Positions 31,343 through 41,343 are shown, counted from the stretch's first letter. The stretch is 64,000 nucleotides of DNA from an uncultured Chloroflexia bacterium (GCA_963778025.1 CAVZTA010000013.1:27811-91810), one strand, 5' to 3'. Translations and numbers: made by a program. The notes: generated by a model from the sequence alone, not told the origin.

Positions 31343-32121
31343 GTGGCTGACCTGAACGTCGGGCAACTGGGCCTGCTGCTCGCCGTGACACTGGCGTCTG
31401 CCGTCGAGTTCGTCGAGGCGTTCACGATCGTGCTCGCCATGGGGATCACCCGCGACTGGCGCTCGACGCTGGCCGGGACCGCCCTGGCGCTCGTGGCACT
31501 CGCGGCGGTGACGCTGTTCGCCGGCTACGCCCTCATCGAGTGGTTCCCGGAGGCGCTGCTCCAGCTGGTGATCGGCACCCTGCTGCTCATCTTCGGGTTG
31601 CAATGGCTGCGGAAGGCGATCCTTCGCGCAGCGGGGCTCAAGGCGCAGCACGACGAGGACGCGATCTTCCACGAGGAAGCCGCCGCGGCACGTGGGGCAC
31701 GCCGGGAGTCGGTCATGGGACTTGACTGGTTCGCGTTCGTGGTGTCCTTCAAGGGCGTGTTCCTCGAGGGCCTCGAGGTCGTGTTCATCGTCCTGACCTT
31801 CGGGTTGTCAGCGGGCAACGTTCCGTTGGCCGTGGCCGGTGCTGCGGTCGCCGGAACGACCGTCCTCGTCGTGGGTGCACTGCTCCATCGTCCGCTGTCG
31901 CGCGTCCCGGAGAACACCATCAAGTACGGCGTCGGGATCCTGCTCTCGACGTTCGGGACCTTCTGGGCGGTCGAGGGTCTGGGCGTGTTCGCTCCGGACG
32001 GGCAGAGCCTGGAGTGGCCCGGCGCTGAGGCGGCCTTGATCGTCGTCCTGGTCACCTGGATCGCCGTGTCGCAGGTGCTGATCACGACCTTGCGGCGCCG
32101 GCAGTGCCCGCGGCGGCCTGA
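31343..32121 (+). CDS. COG4280-like multipass membrane protein (putative metal-ion transporter); probable frameshift near 32100
   Basis: About 6 TM helices, acidic motifs VEFVEA and FLEGLE, VPENTIK; TGA at 32121 in adjacent frame. Confidence 0.7.
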
Positions 32122-32132
32122 GGGGCGATCGC

Positions 32133-32336
32133 GTGCGGTGGATCGCGGCGTTCGGTCGCTTCTGGTACGACTTCATCATCGGCGACGATTGGCGGATCGC
32201 CGCCGGCGTGATCTCGGTGCTCGCCGGCGGTGCCGCGGCGCTGGTCGTCGGCGTGTCGCCCGAGATCATCGCGCCGGTGGTCGGGATCGCGATCGTCCTG
32301 GTGTTCGCGATCCCCTTGGCTCGCGTCGCGCGCTGA
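32133..32336 (+). CDS. Small membrane protein
   Basis: FGRFWYDFIIGDDW motif plus two TM helices; GAGGGG SD. Confidence 0.7.
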   Translation: MRWIAAFGRFWYDFIIGDDWRIAAGVISVLAGGAAALVVGVSPEIIAPVVGIAIVLVFAIPLARVAR

Positions 32337-32376
32337 TCGAGGCGACAGCCTCGGATCCCGCAGCGTGCCGGGCTGT

Positions 32377-32523
32377 ATGCAGATCCTGCATGTCGTGACC
32401 CTCGGGAGCACCTGACCCGCCGATCCGATGCACGCGCGGCATATCCCGGGCGAGGTCATGGACGAGGTGCATACCTCCGACGAGTTCGGGTGCCCCGCCG
32501 GTCACGACAGTCAGTTGCTGCAT
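32377..32523. repeat. Intergenic inverted repeat pair (REPIN-like)
   Basis: ATGCAG-N8-TGTCGTGACC (32377-32400) and its reverse complement at 32500-32523. Confidence 0.6.
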
Positions 32524-32609: not shown

Positions 32610-33497
32610 ATGGCCGATCCCGTACCGAACCGCCTCCGCTGGAGCGAGATCCGCAAGGAGCTGCCGATGCGCAGCCTCAAGCGGACGTTCACGCGCGGCA
32701 ACGGCGGCAAGCTCGCGTTCGTGTGGGTGCTCGGTGCCGGCGTCCTGATCACCCTGGCGGCGAACCCGCTGCTCGCCGGCGTCTTCTCGGTGGCGTGCGC
32801 GATCCTCGCCGTGCCCATCACCCGCGACGAGCTCAAGGACGACGCCGTCCGCCGCGACCTCATCGAACAGGTCATCGGCGAACGCTTCGCCACGCCCGGC
32901 ATCAGCGACCCGGAGCTCAAGGACGAGCTGAGCCGCACGCGCCGCACGCTCACGGAGATGGCCGGGCGCATCTCGCGCTCCGAGCAGCGCGGCCGGACCG
33001 ACACGCCGCTCGAGAGCGTGTTCGCCGACGCCACCGAGCTCGCGAGCCTCCAGCTCGAATCGGCCCAGCAGGCGGAGGACCTCGACCGCATCGTCGACTT
33101 CGTGCTGCGCAACGAGCTGGAGCGCGGCGCGTCGACGCGATGGGGACCCGGCCACGAGCCGTCGGAGGTCGTCCGGCAGCGGCGCGAGCAACAGGCCCGG
33201 GCCGCGATGCAGGCGACCGACGACCAGCTTCGCAGCCGGAACCTCAAAGCCGTCCTCGAGGAATCGAAGGCAGCACGGGAGATGGTCACGACCATCGGCG
33301 GTCAGCTGGAAACGATGCTCCTGCAGGGATTCCAGATCGAACGCGATACCGTGGACGTCGCCCGTGCCGAGCACGCGGCCCAGGAATCGCACGAAGCCGT
33401 CGCGCGGTTGCAGGACGTCGTGGACGCCCGGCGCCGCGCCGCAACACGACTGAACGACCTGTTCACCCCCGAAGGGGAGACGGGGGCCCGGGCCTGA
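32610..33497 (+). CDS. Two-TM membrane protein with long cytoplasmic helical/coiled-coil region
   Basis: Two hydrophobic helices near aa 35-70 followed by a charged helical region. Confidence 0.8.
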   Translation: MADPVPNRLRWSEIRKELPMRSLKRTFTRGNGGKLAFVWVLGAGVLITLAANPLLAGVFSVACAILAVPITRDELKDDAVRRDLIEQVIGERFATPGISDPELKDELSRTRRTLTEMAGRISRSEQRGRTDTPLESVFADATELASLQLESAQQAEDLDRIVDFVLRNELERGASTRWGPGHEPSEVVRQRREQQARAAMQATDDQLRSRNLKAVLEESKAAREMVTTIGGQLETMLLQGFQIERDTVDVARAEHAAQESHEAVARLQDVVDARRRAATRLNDLFTPEGETGARA

Positions 33498-33528
33498 CGC
33501 CCGGGCGAGGGGAAGAGAGGAAGCTCGC

Positions 33529-35343
33529 ATGGCATTCCGCCCGGGTGGACAGGGCGTCCGCTCGAACTGGCTCGCGCTCGCGCTGGGCCTCGCGGTGGTG
33601 TTCTTCGTCGTCGCGGTGGCCGGCCAGTTCATCGGCAGCCGGGGCGGCGACCCGACCGGGACCGGTGTCCCGGGCCAGGAGACCCCGACCCCGCCGCCCA
33701 ACGCGGTCGCGATCTCGATCGCCAGCTCGAATACGAAGGAAGCGTGGCTCCACCAGGCGGTCGATGCGTTCAACGCCGCGGCCGCCAGCGACACGGCGCT
33801 CCAGGTCGGCGGCAAGCCCGTCTATGTGACGGTGCTCCAGGAGGTCGTCGACGGCAAGAACGTCGACTACCGCTCCGGCACGATGGTCAGCGACACCCTC
33901 GGCGGCCGGATCGAGCCGACCGTCCTGTCACCCGGCGACGTCTCGTGGCTGAGCAAGCTCGAGCACGAGTGGAGCTCGCAGAAGGGCGGCGACCCGATCG
34001 GCGCCGCCGACTCGCCCATCGTCGCCCGCACGCCCGTCGTCGTCGCGATGTGGCAGTCGCGCGCCGCCGCCCTCGGCTGCTGGCCCACCGCGGGCCCGGA
34101 CTGCACCTGGTCCCGCCTCCGCGACCTCGCGGTGGCGACCGACGGCTGGGGATCGGCCGGCCACCCCGAATGGCGTCGCTTCAAGTTCGGCTATGGCTAC
34201 TTCGGTGAATCGAACTCGGGCACGCTCGCCATCACCGCGATGTGCGCGGCCGGCCTCGGCAAGTCCGCCGGGCTCACGGTCGCGGACATCGACCCCGCGA
34301 ACGGCTGTGGCCAGTTCGTGACCCAGATCGAGAAGGCCAAGGTCCACTCCGGCAAGTCCGATGTGTGGCTGCTCGACCAGATGACCGGTGGCGGGCCCGA
34401 GTACCTCGACGGCGTCGTGACCTACGAATCGAATGTCATCGCCCGGAACAAGTCGGCCGGCGCCACGCTCCGCGAGCCGCTGGTGAGCGTCTACCCGCAG
34501 GACGGCACCATCGTCGCCGGCCATCCGTACGCGATCCTCGACGGCGCACCGTGGATCACCGACGAGCAGGTCCAGGCGGCCGGCGTGTTCCGCGACTACC
34601 TTCTCTCGAAGGAGCAGCAGACGAAGCTCCTGGAGCTCGGCCTGCGACCTGCCGACACCAGCGTCCCGCTGACGTCGCCCATCGACCCCGCGCTGGGCGC
34701 CAACCCGAACGCGAATCTCGTCGGCATCCAGATGCCCGACACGCTCGTGATCGACCGGATCGGCGAGGTGTGGCACCAGGTCCGGAAGCACGCCGCGATC
34801 GCGATCGTGTTCGACAAGTCGGGCTCGATGGCCGATAGCGGCAAGATCACCTACGCGGTGAAGGGCGCCCAGGAGTTCGTGAAGCGCATGGAGCCCACGG
34901 ATACCCTGCTCTGGATGCCGTTCGACAGCGAGATCTACGCGCCGGTGACCGGCCTGAAGTCCCAGATCGGCGAGCAGCTCATCTCGACCATCGGCGGCAC
35001 GCCCGCCGAGGGTGGCACGGCGCTCTACGACGCGGTCCTCTCGGCCTACGCCGAACTCTCGAAGATCCGAGCGACCGAGGGTGACTCGCTGCGCTACGGC
35101 ATCGTCGTGCTGTCGGACGGGCAGGACCAGAACAGCAACGCCTCGCTGGCCCAGCTCGAGGCCCAGCTCCAGCCGGGCGAAGCGGATCCGACGGGCATCC
35201 AGATCCATACCATCGCCATCGGCGACGACGCCGACGAGACGGTGCTCAAGAAGATCGCCAATGCGGCCCACGGGCGCTACTGGAAGACCCAGCAGGAGTC
35301 CGAGGTCGTGAACGTCTACCGGGACATCGCCGCGTACTTCTAG
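33529..35343 (+). CDS. Membrane-anchored extracellular solute-binding-fold plus VWA domain protein
   Basis: N-terminal TM; SBP-like region (SSNTK, SNSGTL, TYES, YPQDGT); VWA MIDAS DKSGS...GGTALYD...VVLSDG. Confidence 0.88.
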   Translation: MAFRPGGQGVRSNWLALALGLAVVFFVVAVAGQFIGSRGGDPTGTGVPGQETPTPPPNAVAISIASSNTKEAWLHQAVDAFNAAAASDTALQVGGKPVYVTVLQEVVDGKNVDYRSGTMVSDTLGGRIEPTVLSPGDVSWLSKLEHEWSSQKGGDPIGAADSPIVARTPVVVAMWQSRAAALGCWPTAGPDCTWSRLRDLAVATDGWGSAGHPEWRRFKFGYGYFGESNSGTLAITAMCAAGLGKSAGLTVADIDPANGCGQFVTQIEKAKVHSGKSDVWLLDQMTGGGPEYLDGVVTYESNVIARNKSAGATLREPLVSVYPQDGTIVAGHPYAILDGAPWITDEQVQAAGVFRDYLLSKEQQTKLLELGLRPADTSVPLTSPIDPALGANPNANLVGIQMPDTLVIDRIGEVWHQVRKHAAIAIVFDKSGSMADSGKITYAVKGAQEFVKRMEPTDTLLWMPFDSEIYAPVTGLKSQIGEQLISTIGGTPAEGGTALYDAVLSAYAELSKIRATEGDSLRYGIVVLSDGQDQNSNASLAQLEAQLQPGEADPTGIQIHTIAIGDDADETVLKKIANAAHGRYWKTQQESEVVNVYRDIAAYF

Positions 35344-35427
35344 GCGCCTGCGAGGCCGGCGCGCGTCGCCGGTTTGCGCGCGGCGCGCCGGACCGCGACA
35401 CTCGACCCGACCGCTACGAGGACATCG

Positions 35428-36274
35428 ATGGGCCGCTTCTTCGCCTCCATCCGGCGCTGGTTCGACTTCTTCTTCCTCCGGCGCAGCGAGGACGTCCGCC
35501 GCTCCGCCGACGGGCAGTTCACCGGCTCCGTCGAGGGCATCCGCGCGGCGTACGCGATCGACCGTGACCGCCTGGCCAAGGACTTCCGTGGACTGCAGGA
35601 GGCCGTCGCCCAGGTCCTCCAGGTGTCCGAGGACAAGAAGATCCGGCTGGAACGCCTGGATGCCGAGGAGAAGGATCTCCAGGCCCAGCTCAACGGCGCC
35701 ATCCGTGCAGCCGAGCAGGCGCAGGCGACGGGCGACACGGCCGGGTACGAGAAGGCGCAGGCCGCGTACACCCGCTACAAGACGCGCCTCACTGATATCG
35801 ACGCCTCGCCAGGAACAGCTGACCGCCGAGGTCGCCGCGCTCGAGAAGAGCATCCAGACCCACATGGGCCGGCTCACCGAGTTCCAGGCCCGGCTCGAGG
35901 CGCTGCCGCAGGAGGAGGCGGAGACCGTCGCCGACTTCGTCTCGGCCAAGCAGATCATCGAGCTCAACAACCGCCTGATGAACGCATCCGACTCGTTGAA
36001 GGAAGGGCCGACGGCCACCGTCCGCGAGCAGGTGCGCCAGATGTCGTCCCAGGCGCGGATCACCGAGAAGCTCGCCGGCACCGACGTCAAGCTCCAGGAC
36101 CAGGAGTACGCGACGCTGGGCAAGCAGATGGAGGGCGAGGACTCGCTCGAAGCCGTCCTGCGCGCCCGCAAGGCACAGCGTGCCGCGGCCGAGGGGACGC
36201 CGCTCCCGGAGCAGCCCGTCGCCGAATCGGCCACCGCGGAGCCCGCCGAGCCGGCCGAGCGGCCGCGGATCTGA
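35428..36274 (+). CDS. PspA/IM30/Vipp1 (ESCRT-III-like) protein; one extra base near 35806
   Basis: N-terminal amphipathic helix MGRFFASIRRWFDFFF, long helical hairpin with AQATGD turn, C-terminal DSLEAVLRARK helix; about 280 aa once joined. Confidence 0.7.
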
Positions 36275-36299
36275 CCGGGGTGACCGCGGATCTGACGAG

Positions 36300-38222
36300 G
36301 TGACGACGGAGGCCACCGGCGGGTCGGCCTCCGGCACCACGGGCGAGACGCCGCCCGTCGCGGCGCTCGGGCCCGAGAGTGCGCCTCACGCTCCGGCCAC
36401 CGCCGCCTCGGGCGCGGCGGCACCCATCCGCCCGGCGTTCCTGGACGAGCTCTCGGGGGCGCACTACGCGCGCCTCGCGCGGTGCCTCGTCCTGTCGGGC
36501 AACGTCGACGACCTGTTCCCGAACGTCGGGGCGGGACCGCGCTACGTCGGCCTCGACCGCCTCCTCCGTGAGGCGTTCCACAACGCCCGCTATCCGACCA
36601 CCGGGCAGGCGGTCCGCTTCCTCGTGCTCGCGCTCCGGAGCGACGGCCTCGTGTTCGCGACCGACGACGACCGGCAGGTGCTCCTCGACGTGCTCGCGAC
36701 GCTGCGGCCGCCGAACGACGACCTCGCCGACCAGCTCCAGACGATCCTGCGCGAGGCCGCCCGTGAGCGGTCGTCCTCGCTGGTCACGCTGACGCTCGTC
36801 GCCGAGCTGCTCCGGCTGGCCGCCCGGATCCGCAAGCGGAAGATCCGTGTGCCACCCATCGCGGTGACCATCGACCACGCGGACACGCTCCTGCCGTCGG
36901 GCGACGTGGCGCGGATGCCGCCGCTCGACCGCGAGTCGGTGAAGGTGTTCGCGGATCTCCTTCGCGACGACGAGATCTGGGCCGAGGCCGAGACCGCCGA
37001 CGTGTATCCGGACGTCGTGCTGCTCATGGCGAGCGCCGCTGCGGAGCTCAATCAGCGGGTCTCGACCCTGCCCAAGGTCGTGCGCATCGATGTCCCGGCG
37101 CCCGACGAGGCGACCCGGCTCGCGTTCCTGCGCGACCGCCTCGCGGCGCGCGCGAGCAGCGGCGATGGACCGCTGCCCGACGGCTACACGGTCGAGGCAC
37201 TGAGCGTCGACTCGAAGGGCCTCACCCTGCGAGCGCTGGACGACCTGGTCACCGCGGCGCAGCGCGACCCCGCCACCTACCGGATCGATCGCGCGGCGGT
37301 GGTGACGGCCGTGAATCGCGTGCTCCAGGACCGGCTGGGCTCGATCATCAACGTCGTCTACCCGGACCACTCGATGGCCGATGTCGTCGGGTTCCGAGGC
37401 CTCCGCCGACGGCTCACCCAGCTCCGGCGCCGCTTCGACGACCCGGACCGCGCGCCGGCCGGCATCACCGTCGTCGGCCCCAACGGGGCAGGGAAGACGT
37501 TCATCCTCGAGGCGTTCGCCGCCGACACCCAACGCACGGTCATCACGCTCAGCCAGATCCGCAGCGAGTGGTACGGCAAGACCGACGTCTTCGCCGAGCA
37601 GTTCGAGAAGGGCATCAGCGCCTTCGGCCGGATCCTCGTGCTGGTCGACGAGGCGCACGTCGCGTTCGGCTCCATCCACAGTCGCGACACGCACGAGACC
37701 GAGGCGCGGCTCACGCGCCACATCATCCAGATGATCGACGACCTGTACCTGCGGTCACGGGTCGTCTGGGCGCTCATCACCACCCGCCCGGATCTGCTGG
37801 ACCCGGACTTCGTCCGATCCGGGCGCTGTTCGGTGTTCGTGCCGATCTTCGACCCCGAGGGCGACGACCTGACCGACTTCGCGGCGATGGTCGAGCAGCG
37901 GCTGGTGAAGGCCGGCGTCACCTTCTCGCCCGAGGAGCACGCCCTGTTCGTGGACAAGTCGAAGGGCTTCTCGGCGGGCGACTTCCGCGAGTTCAGCGAC
38001 GACTTCGCCGACGAGCGCTCGTTCGACCCGGACCGGTCCCTCGCCGACTTCCTGACCGGCTGGACGCCGTCGTCGGTGGCGCTCGCCCGCGAGCGCGAGG
38101 TGCAGATCCTGCTTGCCGCGCTGAACTGCGACTGGCCGGAGCTCCTCCCCGAGCGCCTCAAGGGCGTCCCCAAGGACGAGCTGCGCGCGCGCCTCGACGA
38201 GCTGCAGCTCCGCCTCCGGTAG
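36300..38222 (+). CDS. Classical-clade AAA+ ATPase with degenerate N-terminal AAA-like domain
   Basis: Walker A GPNGAGKT (37476-37499), pore loop SEWYG, Walker B VLVDE, SRH TTRPDLLDPDFVRSGR, GFSAGD lid. Confidence 0.9.
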   Translation: MTTEATGGSASGTTGETPPVAALGPESAPHAPATAASGAAAPIRPAFLDELSGAHYARLARCLVLSGNVDDLFPNVGAGPRYVGLDRLLREAFHNARYPTTGQAVRFLVLALRSDGLVFATDDDRQVLLDVLATLRPPNDDLADQLQTILREAARERSSSLVTLTLVAELLRLAARIRKRKIRVPPIAVTIDHADTLLPSGDVARMPPLDRESVKVFADLLRDDEIWAEAETADVYPDVVLLMASAAAELNQRVSTLPKVVRIDVPAPDEATRLAFLRDRLAARASSGDGPLPDGYTVEALSVDSKGLTLRALDDLVTAAQRDPATYRIDRAAVVTAVNRVLQDRLGSIINVVYPDHSMADVVGFRGLRRRLTQLRRRFDDPDRAPAGITVVGPNGAGKTFILEAFAADTQRTVITLSQIRSEWYGKTDVFAEQFEKGISAFGRILVLVDEAHVAFGSIHSRDTHETEARLTRHIIQMIDDLYLRSRVVWALITTRPDLLDPDFVRSGRCSVFVPIFDPEGDDLTDFAAMVEQRLVKAGVTFSPEEHALFVDKSKGFSAGDFREFSDDFADERSFDPDRSLADFLTGWTPSSVALAREREVQILLAALNCDWPELLPERLKGVPKDELRARLDELQLRLR

Positions 38223-38391: not shown

Positions 38392-39934
38392 ATGACCGCG
38401 GCGCCGCCGGTCCAGGGGATGGTCACGATCGATGACGGCCCCCTCTCGCTCGCCGACCTGTGCGCGGTCGCACGGGGCGCCCACCTGCAGCTGGGGCCGG
38501 CGGCACGGGCGCGGATCGCCGATGCGCGGGCGGTCGTGGACGAGGCCGTCGATGGCCCCGACCTGATCTACGGGCTGAACACCGGTCTCGGCCACATGCG
38601 CGACGTTCGTGTCGACCGCGGGACGCTCGGCCTGTACCAGGAGGTCATCGTCAGGAGCCACGTCGGCGCGATCGGCCGGCCGCTCCCGACGGATGTCGTG
38701 CGGGCGGCGATCGCCGTCCGGATCAATGGCTTCGCGCGCGGCGGCTCCGGGATCAGCCCGGCGGTCGCCGACGGCCTCGTTGCGATGCTCGAGGCGGGCA
38801 TCCATCCCGTCATCGGCGAGACAGGCTCGGTCGGTGCCGCGGACCTCATGCACATGGCGGCCATCGCGCAGGTGCTCATCGGAGCCGGGCGCGCCGAGCT
38901 CCGCGGCGAGATCCTCGATGGCGCCGAGGCCCTCCGGCGAGCCGGGTTGGCACCCGTCCGGCTGGGCCCCAAGGACGGCCTCGCCCTCATCTCGGCGAAC
39001 GGCGTGTCCATCGGGCGTGGCGCCCTCGTCATCGACCGCGCGACCCGCCTGGCACGAGCCGTCGACGTGGTGTTCGCGCTCAGCCTGGAGTCGGTGCGGG
39101 GCAACCCGTCCATCGTCGAGCCGATCGTGGCCCGGTCCAAGCCGGTCCCCGGACAGCGCGAGGCGGCGACGCGGATCCGCCGGTTCCTCACGGGCAGCGG
39201 CCGTTGCGAGCCGGGCGGCGCCACATCCGTGCAGGACCCGCTGTCGTTCCGGGTCGCTCCCCAGGTGCACGGCGCGCTGCGCACGTTCCTGACCCTCGCG
39301 CGCGACGCCGTCGAGCTGGAGCTGAACGCCGCGGACGACAACCCGGTCGTCGACATCGACGAAGGCCGGCTCGTCAGCAACGGCAACTTCCATCCCATCG
39401 CGATGGCGCTCGCCTTCGATGCGCTGCGCCCGGCGCTCGCGCATGTCGGCGTGCTGGCGGATCGCCGGCTCGACCATCACTGGCGGCTCGTGTTCGCGCA
39501 GGAGATGACCGAGGAGCTCCTCCTGGGGCTCGCTGACTCGGGCGCGCTCCTGCGCTACGCGGCGGCCGCCCGGACTGGGGACCTGCGCGCGCTCGCGGCG
39601 CCCGCGACGCTCGACATCGGCTCCCTGGATCTCGGGCAGGAGGACCATTCCACGAACGCGCCGACGACCGTCGCCCGCACGGACGCCGCCCTCGACGCGC
39701 TCGCGGACGTGTTGGCGACCGAGGTGCTCAGCGCCCGCTGGCTGCTCCGCCTGAACGAGACCATCGATCTCGGGGTGGGGACGGCAGCGGCGCTCGGCGC
39801 GGTCGAGACGGTCCTCGCCGGGCTGCCCGAGACGGCGACGACCGAGGACCGCCACGCGGCGGTCCGCGACCAGCTCGACACGACGATCGTCGAGGCCGCC
39901 GAAATCGACGCTCGAGTCCACGATCCGACGATGA
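38392..39934 (+). CDS. Histidine ammonia-lyase-like protein lacking the MIO tripeptide (3' end uncertain; reads in-frame into MFS gene)
   Basis: IYGLNTGLG, GSVGAADL, KDGLALISAN, QDPLSFR..PQVHG, DNP, GNFH, GQEDH. Confidence 0.85.
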
Positions 39935-41343
39935 CGGCTCGGCCGCGCCCGGCCGCGGCGGGCGGGCTCGTCCTGCTTGCGGCGCTGGCGTCCTTCACCG
40001 CGAACCTCGACCTCAGCATCGTCAACCTCGCGCTGCCGGTCATCGGCAAGGCGTTCGGCGCCGGGCAGGCGGAGCTCGCGTGGGTCGTGAACGCGTACGT
40101 CCTGCCGTACGCCGTCTCGATCCTCGCGGTCGGCCGGCTGGGCGATGGGTTCGGCCACCGGCGCGTGCTTGCGTACGGCGCCCTCCTGTTCGCCCTCGGG
40201 TCGTTCGTCGCGGCGGCGGCCGGCGTCGCGGGCGGCTACCCGGCGCTGCTCCTGGGTCGCGCGATGCAGGGCCTCGGCGGAAGCGCGTTGCTCACCATCG
40301 CGCTCGCCGTCGTGTCCGCGAACTTCAGCGGGGAAGCACGGGGCGTCGCGCTGGGGCGGTACTTCGCGGCCGGCGCCGGGGCGGCGGTCATCGGTCCGCT
40401 GATCGGCGCGGTCCTCGCCTCGGTGTTCGGATGGCCGGGCATCTTCGCGAGCCAGGTGCCGCTGGGCATCCTCGTCGCGGTGCTGGCGTGGCGGCTGCTG
40501 CCCGATGCGTCCCGGACCCGCCACGTGTCGCTCGATGTGCCGGCGCTCGTCGCCGCGACGATCGCGCTCGCCGGCATCAATGTGGCCCTCCTCCAGGGCG
40601 AAGCGTGGGGCTGGACGTCAGCCGCGATCCTCGGAGCGTGGGCGGTGGCGGCGGTCGCGCTGGCCGCGTTCGTGGTGCGGGAGCGCACCGCTGCGGAGCC
40701 AGCCGTTCGGCTGGCCATCTTCCGCAGCCGCGGCTTCGTGGCGTCGGCGCTGGTCGGCGCCGCGGCCTGGTTCGGCATCCTGTCGGGCTCGATCCAGCTC
40801 GCGATCTATCTGCAGGTCGGGCGGGGGCTCGGGGCGCTGGAAGCGGCGCTCGTGCTCGTCCCGTGGCCGCTCGTCGCCGCGTTCCTGTTCCCACGGTCGG
40901 CCGCCATCGCCCGCCGGTTCGGCCCCGATCGGACGATGACGGCCTGCCTCCTCGTCGCGGTGATCGCCGCGGCGCTGATGATCGGCCTCGACGCGTCGAC
41001 GCCCCTGCCGGTCGTGTCGCTCCTCGCGGCACTGGGCGGCGCGCCCATCGCCGTCGCGGTCACCGCCAGCACGCTTCGGGCACTCGCGGACTTCCCGCCG
41101 CAGGAGGCGGGCGTGGCCTCGGGCGTGTTCAACAGCCTGCGCCAGGTCGGGGCGTCGCTCGGCGTGGCCATCCCGGCGGCGGTCTTCGAGCTGGTGGCCG
41201 CCACGAGCGGCCCGGCCGCGGCGACGTCGGCCGCGTTCGCGTCGCGTGCCGTGGTGTTCGGCCTGGTGCTGGTGGCGGTCGTGGGGCTCCTGGGTACGCG
41301 CCCACGAGCCACCGCCGCGCCCGCGGGCGCGCCCGCCACCTGA
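39931..41343 (+). CDS. MFS transporter (DHA2/14-TM-like)
   Basis: LDLSIVNLALP, WVVNAY, GRLGDGFGHRR motif A, GRAMQGLGG, GVASGVFNSLRQVG. Confidence 0.9.
   Translation: MTARPRPAAAGGLVLLAALASFTANLDLSIVNLALPVIGKAFGAGQAELAWVVNAYVLPYAVSILAVGRLGDGFGHRRVLAYGALLFALGSFVAAAAGVAGGYPALLLGRAMQGLGGSALLTIALAVVSANFSGEARGVALGRYFAAGAGAAVIGPLIGAVLASVFGWPGIFASQVPLGILVAVLAWRLLPDASRTRHVSLDVPALVAATIALAGINVALLQGEAWGWTSAAILGAWAVAAVALAAFVVRERTAAEPAVRLAIFRSRGFVASALVGAAAWFGILSGSIQLAIYLQVGRGLGALEAALVLVPWPLVAAFLFPRSAAIARRFGPDRTMTACLLVAVIAAALMIGLDASTPLPVVSLLAALGGAPIAVAVTASTLRALADFPPQEAGVASGVFNSLRQVGASLGVAIPAAVFELVAATSGPAAATSAAFASRAVVFGLVLVAVVGLLGTRPRATAAPAGAPAT

Follow-up and report, generated by a model that had tools for sequence, protein, structure and literature searches.

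Positions 32,610 to 38,222 of a 64,000-nucleotide stretch of DNA from an uncultured Chloroflexia bacterium (GCA_963778025.1, CAVZTA010000013.1:27811-91810; the whole stretch is referred to as the window) carry four genes, which encode a protein with two transmembrane (TM) segments (W1), a membrane-anchored fusion of a solute-binding protein (SBP) domain with a VWA domain (W2), a helical PspA-like protein (p3) and an AAA+ ATPase. We interpret this cluster as an accessory envelope-stress or membrane-remodelling module organised around p3 and its dedicated AAA+ ATPase. In this module, the ATPase probably recycles a PspA-type polymer by way of the C-terminal tail of p3, together with an outside binding/VWA module and a two-TM adaptor. 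The core idea of PspA associated with a double-AAA+ ATPase is already in print, as can be seen from the main text of Ravi et al (2024). What is new here is an RPxI tail common to p3 and to the unrelated protein TelA, and the pair formed by W1 and the SBP-VWA protein beside canonical PspA.

Genomic linkage of p3 and the AAA+ ATPase

In a scan of species-representative genomes we found 68 ATPase loci, whose phyla, assigned from the record titles, include Chloroflexota, several lineages of the candidate phyla radiation (CPR), Acidobacteriota, Verrucomicrobiota, Melainabacteria, Bdellovibrionota, Myxococcota, Nitrospinota and others. The ATPase is nevertheless rare, its orthologues forming 73 clusters among 5.8 billion proteins. 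Within a sample of the class of the organism, the gene was found in 2 of 151 genomes, that of the window included, and it was not found in 40 close relatives, for which the query returned FtsH-like core matches only. According to searches with hidden Markov models (HMMs), 45 of the 68 loci have p3 next to the ATPase, and the linkage of the two genes noticed in a preliminary description of the window thus extends across phyla. In 14 of the 23 loci without p3, the sequence upstream of the ATPase gene is shorter than about 2.6 kb, and in three (L023-L025) there is a TelA gene. The pairwise distances between ATPase sequences correlate with those between p3 sequences (r = 0.82 over 43 loci), a value reached by none of 999 permutations; this is expected for co-inherited genes and is no proof of contact. 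L036 was dropped from this comparison as a duplicate of L034. The rows L064 and L047 were dropped for a stop codon inside the reference.

The commonest arrangement is a nine-gene operon, present in 29 loci. It encodes, in this order, a PBP-OmpA protein, a VWA lipoprotein, a TM-PBP-OmpA protein, a membrane protein of about 310 amino acids (S4), p3, an NMT1-type binding protein, an ABC permease, an ABC ATPase and the AAA+ ATPase. Smaller versions exist: L047 and L075 have no transporter, and L021 consists of the ATPase, S4 and p3 only. Five Chloroflexota loci (L013, L016, L017, L018 and L022) have the complete order W1-W2-p3-ATPase, and in another two (L014 and L015) it is truncated by contig ends. 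The four-gene synteny proposed in the preliminary description is therefore real in this group, but it is not the general form, since the nine-gene operon is commoner. The window holds a reduced Chloroflexota variant of a wider operon. As in the window, the cluster lies between an upstream purH and a downstream metG in L013, L017 and L018, and in L022 only metG is present.

Two other loci deserve mention. In Acanthopleuribacter pedis, scaffolds 6 and 2 (L034 and L036) each carry the whole nine-gene operon with identical match values, which reflects either a recent duplication or one region assembled twice. In L033, a gene for a TIR-domain protein (L033:7267-8898, minus strand) and one for a DEAD/DUF3516 helicase (L033:10727-13465, plus strand) flank the ATPase gene, and there is no p3 or TelA within 9 kb.

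p3 is a divergent protein of the PspA/IM30 branch

Neither of the two halves of p3 in the window, where its reading frame is interrupted (see below), nor its intact 283-amino-acid orthologue (L013:8025-8876) reaches a Pfam or NCBIfam cut-off. Profile-profile comparison, on the other hand, relates the family to PspA. When 32 p3 sequences were aligned with hhalign to 18 canonical PspA sequences of the same phylum, from which L085 was omitted as an unpublished genome, the probability was 88.5% (E 2.7e-6). With the option -M first, it was 84.5% (E 6.9e-6), and 181 columns were in register (54-252 of p3 versus 39-221 of PspA). Searched against 1.84 billion representative proteins, the p3 profile gave 501 matches at E<=1e-3. 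From these we took 42 full-length distant members, close to the bottom of the 150 matches listed (HMM E 6e-28 to 4e-22), and compared them with canonical PspA in the same way, which raised the probability to 97.8% (E 7.1e-13) over 216 columns. Nine of these 42 match PF04012 at E<=1e-3 (best 3.4e-7), and no other family is matched by more than one of them.

The structural prediction points in the same direction. An AlphaFold2 (AF2) model of p3 (mean predicted local distance difference test score, pLDDT, 80.5) has helices at residues 2-32, 35-100, 104-190, 194-217, 219-234 and 237-255, followed by a disordered tail. This predicted layout of an alpha0 helix, a long hairpin and three short helices is that of the PspA/IM30 fold, and the first helix (2-32) is rich in Phe, Trp and Arg. 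When the model was used as a Foldseek query, the sole match at E<=1e-3 was Vipp1 (6zvr, E 7.6e-4), and the weaker matches included Vipp1, PspA, CHMP1B and Asgard ESCRT-IIIB among Smc and chemoreceptor coiled coils. The homology to PspA between profiles and the rank of Vipp1 in Foldseek uphold the PspA-like nature ascribed to the third protein, and we place p3, as a divergent member, in the PspA/IM30 branch of the ESCRT-III superfamily. It resembles PspA/IM30 (Vipp1, PF04012) by homology over alpha0 to alpha5, in its helical layout and in the partners seen at locus L115 (see below), and it differs in scoring under the Pfam cut-off, in an additional conserved C-terminal linker with the RPxI tail and in its linkage to an ATPase other than PspF.

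We also considered whether p3 could be a TelA protein. This was rejected, as hhalign against the three operon-linked TelA proteins gave a probability of 1.2%; TelA is also missing from the 25 families matched by most p3 members, each of which is matched by at least four.

The ATPase combines a degenerate and an intact AAA cassette

The ATPase matches PF00004 (1.3e-14), and among solved sequences it comes closest to VAT, Afg2 and p97/Cdc48 (E 3e-30 to 1e-27), in alignments that span their D1 lid into D2. Its D2 cassette carries a Walker A motif (GPNGAGKT), a DEAH Walker B, the pore-loop sequence SEWYG (residues 422-426) and the arginines of the second region of homology. Across 48 family members Walker A is invariant, D450 is kept in all 48 and E451 in 47. 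The pore loop is aromatic at position 424 in 40 of them and at position 425 in all 48, while G426, R496 and R509 are invariant. The assignment to the classical clade, with SEWYG as pore loop and an arginine finger, is upheld by these motifs, of which Walker A and B, the pore-loop Gly and R509 are kept in 47-48 of the 48 sequences. The approximately 300 residues that precede D2 align in register to the protein's own D2, over the Walker B strand, the sensor-1 strand and the lid (hhalign E 3.3e-3, probability 9.7%). In the 48 sequences, the Walker A lysine is missing from this region, as is a conserved acidic residue at Walker B. Judged by these motifs, the ATPase is an unfoldase-type double-cassette AAA+ protein with a predicted dead D1 and a predicted active D2 of the classical clade.

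No MIT family is among the Pfam and NCBIfam matches of the ATPase, and its match to NCBIfam CdvC (E 1e-5, over the AAA core) is far under the 650-bit cut-off. Lacking an MIT domain, the protein is not a member of Vps4/CdvC; its active cassette carries all the motifs of a classical-clade cassette, but a second, dead one precedes it. In the Vps4-like role suggested earlier, the ATPase would act as an analogue of Vps4, with an architecture that is not homologous.

A C-terminal tail shared by p3 and TelA

At the extreme C-terminus of the p3 alignment, a variable linker leads to (D/E)RPxI, which reads ERPRI in the window. An RPxI motif lies no more than three residues from the end in 33 of the 45 p3 homologues and in none of the 18 canonical PspA proteins. 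Among 1786 other open reading frames (ORFs) of at least 150 amino acids from the same 68 loci, only four have it. One of the four is antisense inside an ATPase gene. The other three are TelA-family proteins (PF05816, E 3e-26, 9e-26 and 3.5e-9), and they occupy the slot of p3: in the CPR loci L023-L025, TelA (L023:6324-7598, L024:7696-8919 and L025:6110-7420) replaces p3 between an S4-type gene and the ATPase. The tails of these TelA proteins are ERPQI, ERPKIGG and ERPQIGA.

As two unrelated helical proteins carry the same tail in the same slot, the tail is most simply explained as being read by a conserved partner within the operon. The ATPase, being the partner present in all these loci, would be the tail reader. 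Going further, and more tentatively, (D/E)RPxI might be a portable tag through which the dead-D1/active-D2 ATPase engages and recycles both the PspA-type polymer and TelA. This would be a bacterial disassembly machine independent of Vps4 and of MIT-MIM (MIT-interacting motif) contacts, wired to an extracytoplasmic SBP/VWA module with which the envelope would be monitored or gripped.

Of the 150 representatives listed for the wider p3-like family, 28 have the RPxI tail. Many distant members (P0201-P0252) have no RPxI and end in a (K/L)LPE-type tail, which may tag a different partner. Comparison of ATPases linked to RPxI tails with those linked to ELKA tails showed differences at R44, G347, R378 and L403; as the ELKA group is one lineage, these positions are a lead only.

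Homologues of W1 and W2 also occur beside canonical PspA

W1 has a single hydrophobic hairpin (residues 32-72), and its AF2 model is all-helical, with helices 32-51 and 53-76 followed by a bundle (pLDDT 79, predicted template modelling score 0.73). The database gene call of this protein begins at Met20 (276 amino acids). The two-TM protein with a long helical tail described beforehand is recovered in both the hydrophobicity profile and the model. We found no Pfam or NCBIfam family for W1, no Foldseek match at E<=1e-3 and no similarity to PspA, p3 or TelA, and its family is narrow (29 matches). Its nearest named ESM Atlas cluster carries the Rv2743c family (score 0.90). Shuffled proteins reach that score in 4-10% of cases, so this is a lead only, and none of 17 W1 members matches the Rv2743c model (PF25587) at E<=10.

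W2 has one N-terminal TM segment (residues 9-39) and Pfam matches to VWA (PF00092, 5.1e-9, residues 424-591, above the cut-off), SBP_bac_11 (3.4e-6) and SBP_bac_8 (3.7e-6). Its translation contains DKSGS, GGT and SDG, residues of the metal-ion-dependent adhesion site (MIDAS) type (DxSxS, Thr, Asp). The membrane-anchored SBP-VWA protein with a MIDAS proposed in the preliminary description is borne out by these features, and W2 is predicted to be located outside the cytoplasm. In an hhalign comparison (98.4%, E 7.5e-15), the VWA domain of W2 proved homologous to the VWA lipoprotein encoded by the nine-gene operon. The SBP domain of W2 has no detectable relation to the NMT1-type binding proteins of that operon, and the W2 fusion is thus not simply those genes joined. 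In the related metagenome-assembled genome of L017, the SBP-VWA gene (L017:6196-8050) is split into two overlapping ORFs, a likely frameshift or indel.

Of 201 genomes sampled from the phylum, 31, including that of the window, encode SBP-VWA fusions resembling W2, and we examined eight of their neighbourhoods. In L115, the order is canonical PspA (PF04012, 2.7e-23), a W1 homologue (HMM 5e-43) and the SBP-VWA protein, separated by 12 and 2 nucleotides, and no AAA+ gene lies beside them. L118 and L121 have PspA, SBP and SBP-VWA in succession, and in the remaining five neighbourhoods there is no PspA nearby. These three loci, in which such proteins recur beside PspA, support the earlier suggestion of two-TM and SBP-VWA proteins as PspA partners and indicate that W1 and W2 partner PspA-type proteins in their own right. 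The operon of the window joins this W1-W2 pair to the p3-ATPase pair.

Directly downstream of the SBP-VWA gene, four of the eight neighbourhoods (L118-L121) have an ORF of 247-260 amino acids with an N-terminal double-TM hairpin (L118:8071-8871, L121:8556-9347, and, on the minus strand, L119:6241-7002 and L120:6279-7061). These ORFs belong to no known family, and they have the layout of W1 with no detectable sequence similarity to it.

A possible mode of action

We propose that p3 would polymerise on the cytoplasmic face of the membrane, where W1, with its helical bundle in the cytoplasm, could position it. W1 might in turn be coupled within the membrane to the extracytoplasmic W2, which would sense or tether a target in the envelope through its ligand pocket and its metal-dependent adhesion site. 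A hexameric ATPase, with a dead D1 ring, an active D2 ring and an aromatic pore loop, would recognise the exposed (D/E)RPxI tail of p3, thread it and pull out p3 subunits, and turnover of the polymer would then cost ATP. The logic would be that of Vps4 acting on ESCRT-III, carried out by a different ATPase architecture and a different tag. Polymerisation and membrane binding by p3, recognition of its tail, disassembly and a signal from W2 to W1 are all inferred.

Points against this interpretation and alternative explanations

Several observations weigh against the model proposed above. The first is that p3 is frameshifted in the window. Its similarity to PspA is also below the usual thresholds: the orthologue matches PF04012 at E 0.022 with 14.8 bits, versus 33.9 required by the gathering score, and a match at E<=1 was obtained for 8 of 32 p3 members (best 1.7e-4), while neither half in the window gave a match. 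A profile search against solved structures places Vipp1 and PspA at E 0.7-2 amid unrelated coiled coils, and VIA-align ties ESCRT-III hairpins (Z 11.5-11.7) with coiled coils of chemoreceptors, Smc and PI3K (Z 11-13). The hydrophobic moment of alpha0 (0.33) is no higher than the shuffle mean (0.34), and 48% of 2000 shuffles reach 0.33. Of what had been read from the third protein, the all-helical, PspA/Vipp1-like layout stands and the N-terminal amphipathic helix is upheld only in part. The tail is not universal either, as 12 of the 45 p3 proteins have no RPxI and end instead in ELKA/FKA (8), KPTMAG (2), LPKI or VPKI (2 in all) or RPEL (1); seven of the eight ELKA/FKA tails are from loci labelled Verrucomicrobiota or Akkermansiaceae. 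In six loci neither p3 nor TelA was seen although at least 4 kb lie upstream of the ATPase, which means that the ATPase can stand alone or that its partner is elsewhere in the genome. Finally, the match between W1 and S4 is weak (54%, E 1.3e-4, 44 C-terminal columns). The two are alike in position, size and the N-terminal hydrophobic hairpin, and their equivalence is based mainly on position and layout.

With regard to the frameshift, translation of the window showed that the reading frame of p3 shifts near 35806. The window has one extra base at this point relative to all four aligned orthologues, which confirmed the extra base suspected there before, and both halves share one frame in all 45 homologues found. 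Without this base, the gene would be intact and encode 282 amino acids. If the frameshift is real, the module could be a decaying remnant in this genome, a system no longer working. A whole-genome scan with PF04012 found no canonical PspA, and no second copy of p3 was found, in a genome that is 81% complete; the cluster is moreover rare in the class. However, the other three genes are intact, and the N-terminal half of p3 is 83% identical to the intact orthologue L013:8025-8876, with both halves at 76-83% and no further lesion. Single-base indels are, in addition, a common assembly error. A 531-nucleotide soil-metagenome contig (98% identical, 9 other differences, depth 4.4) has one base fewer at 35806, indicating that near relatives carry an intact p3 frame; X2 and X3 gave no contig across 35806, and this low-depth contig is the only one to cross the site. 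Contigs from an RNA library are identical to 35976-36126, by which transcription is not proven. On balance we consider decay unlikely, while giving it appreciable weight. The extra base is an assembly error or a strain-specific lesion, and the module may be inactive in the strain of the window.

A second alternative is that the ATPase serves an envelope or transport complex, extracting, assembling or quality-controlling parts such as W1/S4, the ABC permease and the VWA/OmpA proteins, while p3 or TelA provides only local membrane protection. This would fit the 29 loci in which a full ABC transporter and three NMT1-type binding proteins are in the operon, as well as the six ATPase loci without p3 and TelA and the fact that the nearest solved relatives (VAT, p97, Afg2 and Msp1) are general extractors or unfoldases. 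The transporter is dispensable, however, since the window form, L047, L075 and L021 keep p3 and the ATPase without it, and the RPxI tail stays with the occupant of the slot even when this is TelA, which is hard to explain without a conserved tail reader. We therefore regard this alternative as improbable.

A third possibility is a defence or conflict system, directed against phages or epibionts, in which p3 or TelA is a membrane effector restrained or activated by the ATPase after the VWA/SBP protein detects an invader. The patchy spread (2 of 151 genomes in the class of the organism, yet many phyla) and the stand-alone ATPase orthologue of L033, which adjoins a TIR-domain gene and a DUF3516 helicase, would be in line with it. 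VWA and AAA+ pairs also sense threats in other systems, but with ATPases of the MoxR type, according to a preprint (bioRxiv 10.64898/2026.09.08.750141). Against this, PADLOC gave weak coiled-coil or P-loop matches only for the four proteins, related loci are flanked by purH and/or metG and not placed in an island, and there is no nuclease, toxin or mobile-element gene in the operon, which makes a defence role very unlikely. That p3 is a generic coiled-coil protein whose likeness to PspA is compositional would suit the noise dominating the PDB profile search and the VIA-align list and the Pfam matches under the cut-off, but it is hardly credible given a full-length, in-register alignment to PspA that reaches 97.8% via intermediates, PF04012 as the sole family matched repeatedly, Vipp1 at the top in Foldseek and canonical PspA in the equivalent place beside W1 and W2 homologues in L115.

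Gene coordinates and surrounding genes

The four genes had been described as co-oriented and closely spaced, which the ORF coordinates bear out (Table 1). All are on the plus strand, with p3 extending over 35428-36274 in two frames, and the gaps between W1, W2, p3 and the ATPase are 31, 84 and 25 nucleotides. The G+C content of the window is about 70-74%, and a scan for sigma-70 promoters and terminators gave nothing useful in such 70% G+C DNA.

Table 1. Coordinates of the four genes and their parts, numbered from the first nucleotide of the window.
Feature	Position	Strand	Description
W1	32610..33497	+	295 aa; 2TM-hairpin membrane protein, TM residues ~32-76, helical bundle (ORF, hydrophobicity, AF2)
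W2	33529..35343	+	604 aa; TM anchor 9-39, Pro/Thr-rich linker, SBP ~116-384, VWA 424-591 (Pfam)
p3, N-terminal part	35428..35806	+	Frame 1; helix alpha0 and first hairpin arm
p3, frameshift site	35806..35808	+	One base more than orthologues
p3, C-terminal part	35807..36274	+	+1 frame; second hairpin arm, alpha4 to alpha6, disordered linker
p3, tail ERPRI	36257-36271	+	Stop codon 36272-36274
AAA+ ATPase	36300..38222	+	640 aa from GTG 36300; longest ORF begins 36180
ATPase D1	36417-37334	+	Degenerate AAA cassette, residues ~40-345
ATPase, remaining parts		+	Low-complexity N-terminus, residues 1-40; D2, residues ~346-560; C-terminal helical region

Two neighbouring genes set the window apart from related loci. 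Between purH and W1, an ORF at 31343-32398 (plus strand) encodes a 351-amino-acid multi-TM protein with a weak GDT1-type match (2.2e-4, under the cut-off), which is absent from that place in related loci. Downstream, a 983-amino-acid ORF (38392-41343, plus strand) combines an aromatic amino-acid ammonia-lyase domain (5e-123) with a major facilitator superfamily (MFS) transporter (9e-46). It is possibly a true fusion, or else two genes joined by an assembly error, and related loci have no such ORF between the ATPase and metG.

The absence of pspB, pspC and pspF noted in the preliminary description holds for the contig of the window, where none of the three was found. Elsewhere in the genome there is a PspC-domain gene (8e-21) on contig 9 (373087-373263), far from the cluster. 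PspB was not found in the genome at its 81% completeness, and Sigma54_activat gave weak matches only, on other contigs.

Comparison with known systems

Ravi et al (2024, mSystems, PMC11237479) report, in the main text, that bacterial PspA is occasionally accompanied by a protein with two AAA+ domains, the N-terminal one inactive, that an ABC ATPase, a permease and PBPB-OmpA proteins are also encoded in longer operons, and that PspA-AAA+ operons may be involved in ATP-dependent membrane remodelling. The remark that PspA-AAA neighbourhoods had already been noted genomically thus finds its source there. Likened by their description, these operons fit our nine-gene form in domain structure and synteny. 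The form in the window differs, without the ABC transporter and OmpA and with the SBP-VWA fusion and W1. The term 'VWA' does not occur in the main text of that paper. The VWA component, the SBP-VWA/W1 variant, its link to canonical PspA, the replacement by TelA and the shared tail did not come up in the main-text passages on these operons or in literature searches, though the supplements of PMC11237479 may cover some of them, and the searches returned no experimental study of the operon.

The cluster differs from the canonical Psp regulon (PspF-PspABC) in that pspB, pspC and pspF are missing from the contig. In mycobacteria, PspA is paired with PspM, a two-TM protein of no other domain, as stated in the main text of Ravi et al (2024). 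W1 has the two-TM layout of PspM but also a long helical bundle, and neither ClgR nor PspN of the mycobacterial ClgR-PspA-PspM-PspN system is present in the cluster of the window.

With ESCRT-III-Vps4 and CdvB-CdvC the cluster has in common that the gene for an ESCRT-III-type protein lies next to that for a classical-clade AAA+ ATPase. The motif on the flexible C-terminal tail of p3 occupies a position like that of a MIM. Compared with Vps4/CdvC, however, the ATPase of the window has two cassettes and no MIT domain, and the tail motif of p3 is unrelated to MIMs. According to a 2025 review (PMC7619361), a Vps4-like ATPase 'appears absent in bacteria'. Among solved sequences, the ATPase of the window is closest to the Cdc48/VAT/Afg2 group, with which it has in common the D1 lid and D2 in tandem, the aromatic pore loop and the arginine fingers; it differs in its dead D1, in its much shorter length (640 amino acids) and in having no recognisable Cdc48-type N domain (residues 1-40 are outside the model).

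The relation to TelA/Ter-type systems is more limited. Stress clusters of this type with VWA proteins have reportedly been described by Anantharaman, Iyer and Aravind in 2012. The likeness consists in TelA taking the p3 slot next to a VWA protein in the three CPR loci; p3 itself is unlike TelA, and no TerD, TerC or TerY kinase/phosphatase genes were seen.

Implications

For the question of how bacterial ESCRT-III-type polymers such as those of PspA and Vipp1 are disassembled, p3 and its ATPase offer a concrete and testable pair. Both occur in cultured organisms, namely Sulfidibacter corallicola, Acanthopleuribacter pedis, Haloferula luteola and H. rosea, according to the record titles. The tail held in common with TelA leads to the prediction that its deletion would remove, and its transplantation confer, dependence on the ATPase. 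The recurrence of SBP-VWA and two-TM partners, also by canonical PspA, points to an unstudied link between the exterior of the envelope and PspA function in Chloroflexota. Although rare, the system could show how bacteria recycle their membrane-repair polymers.

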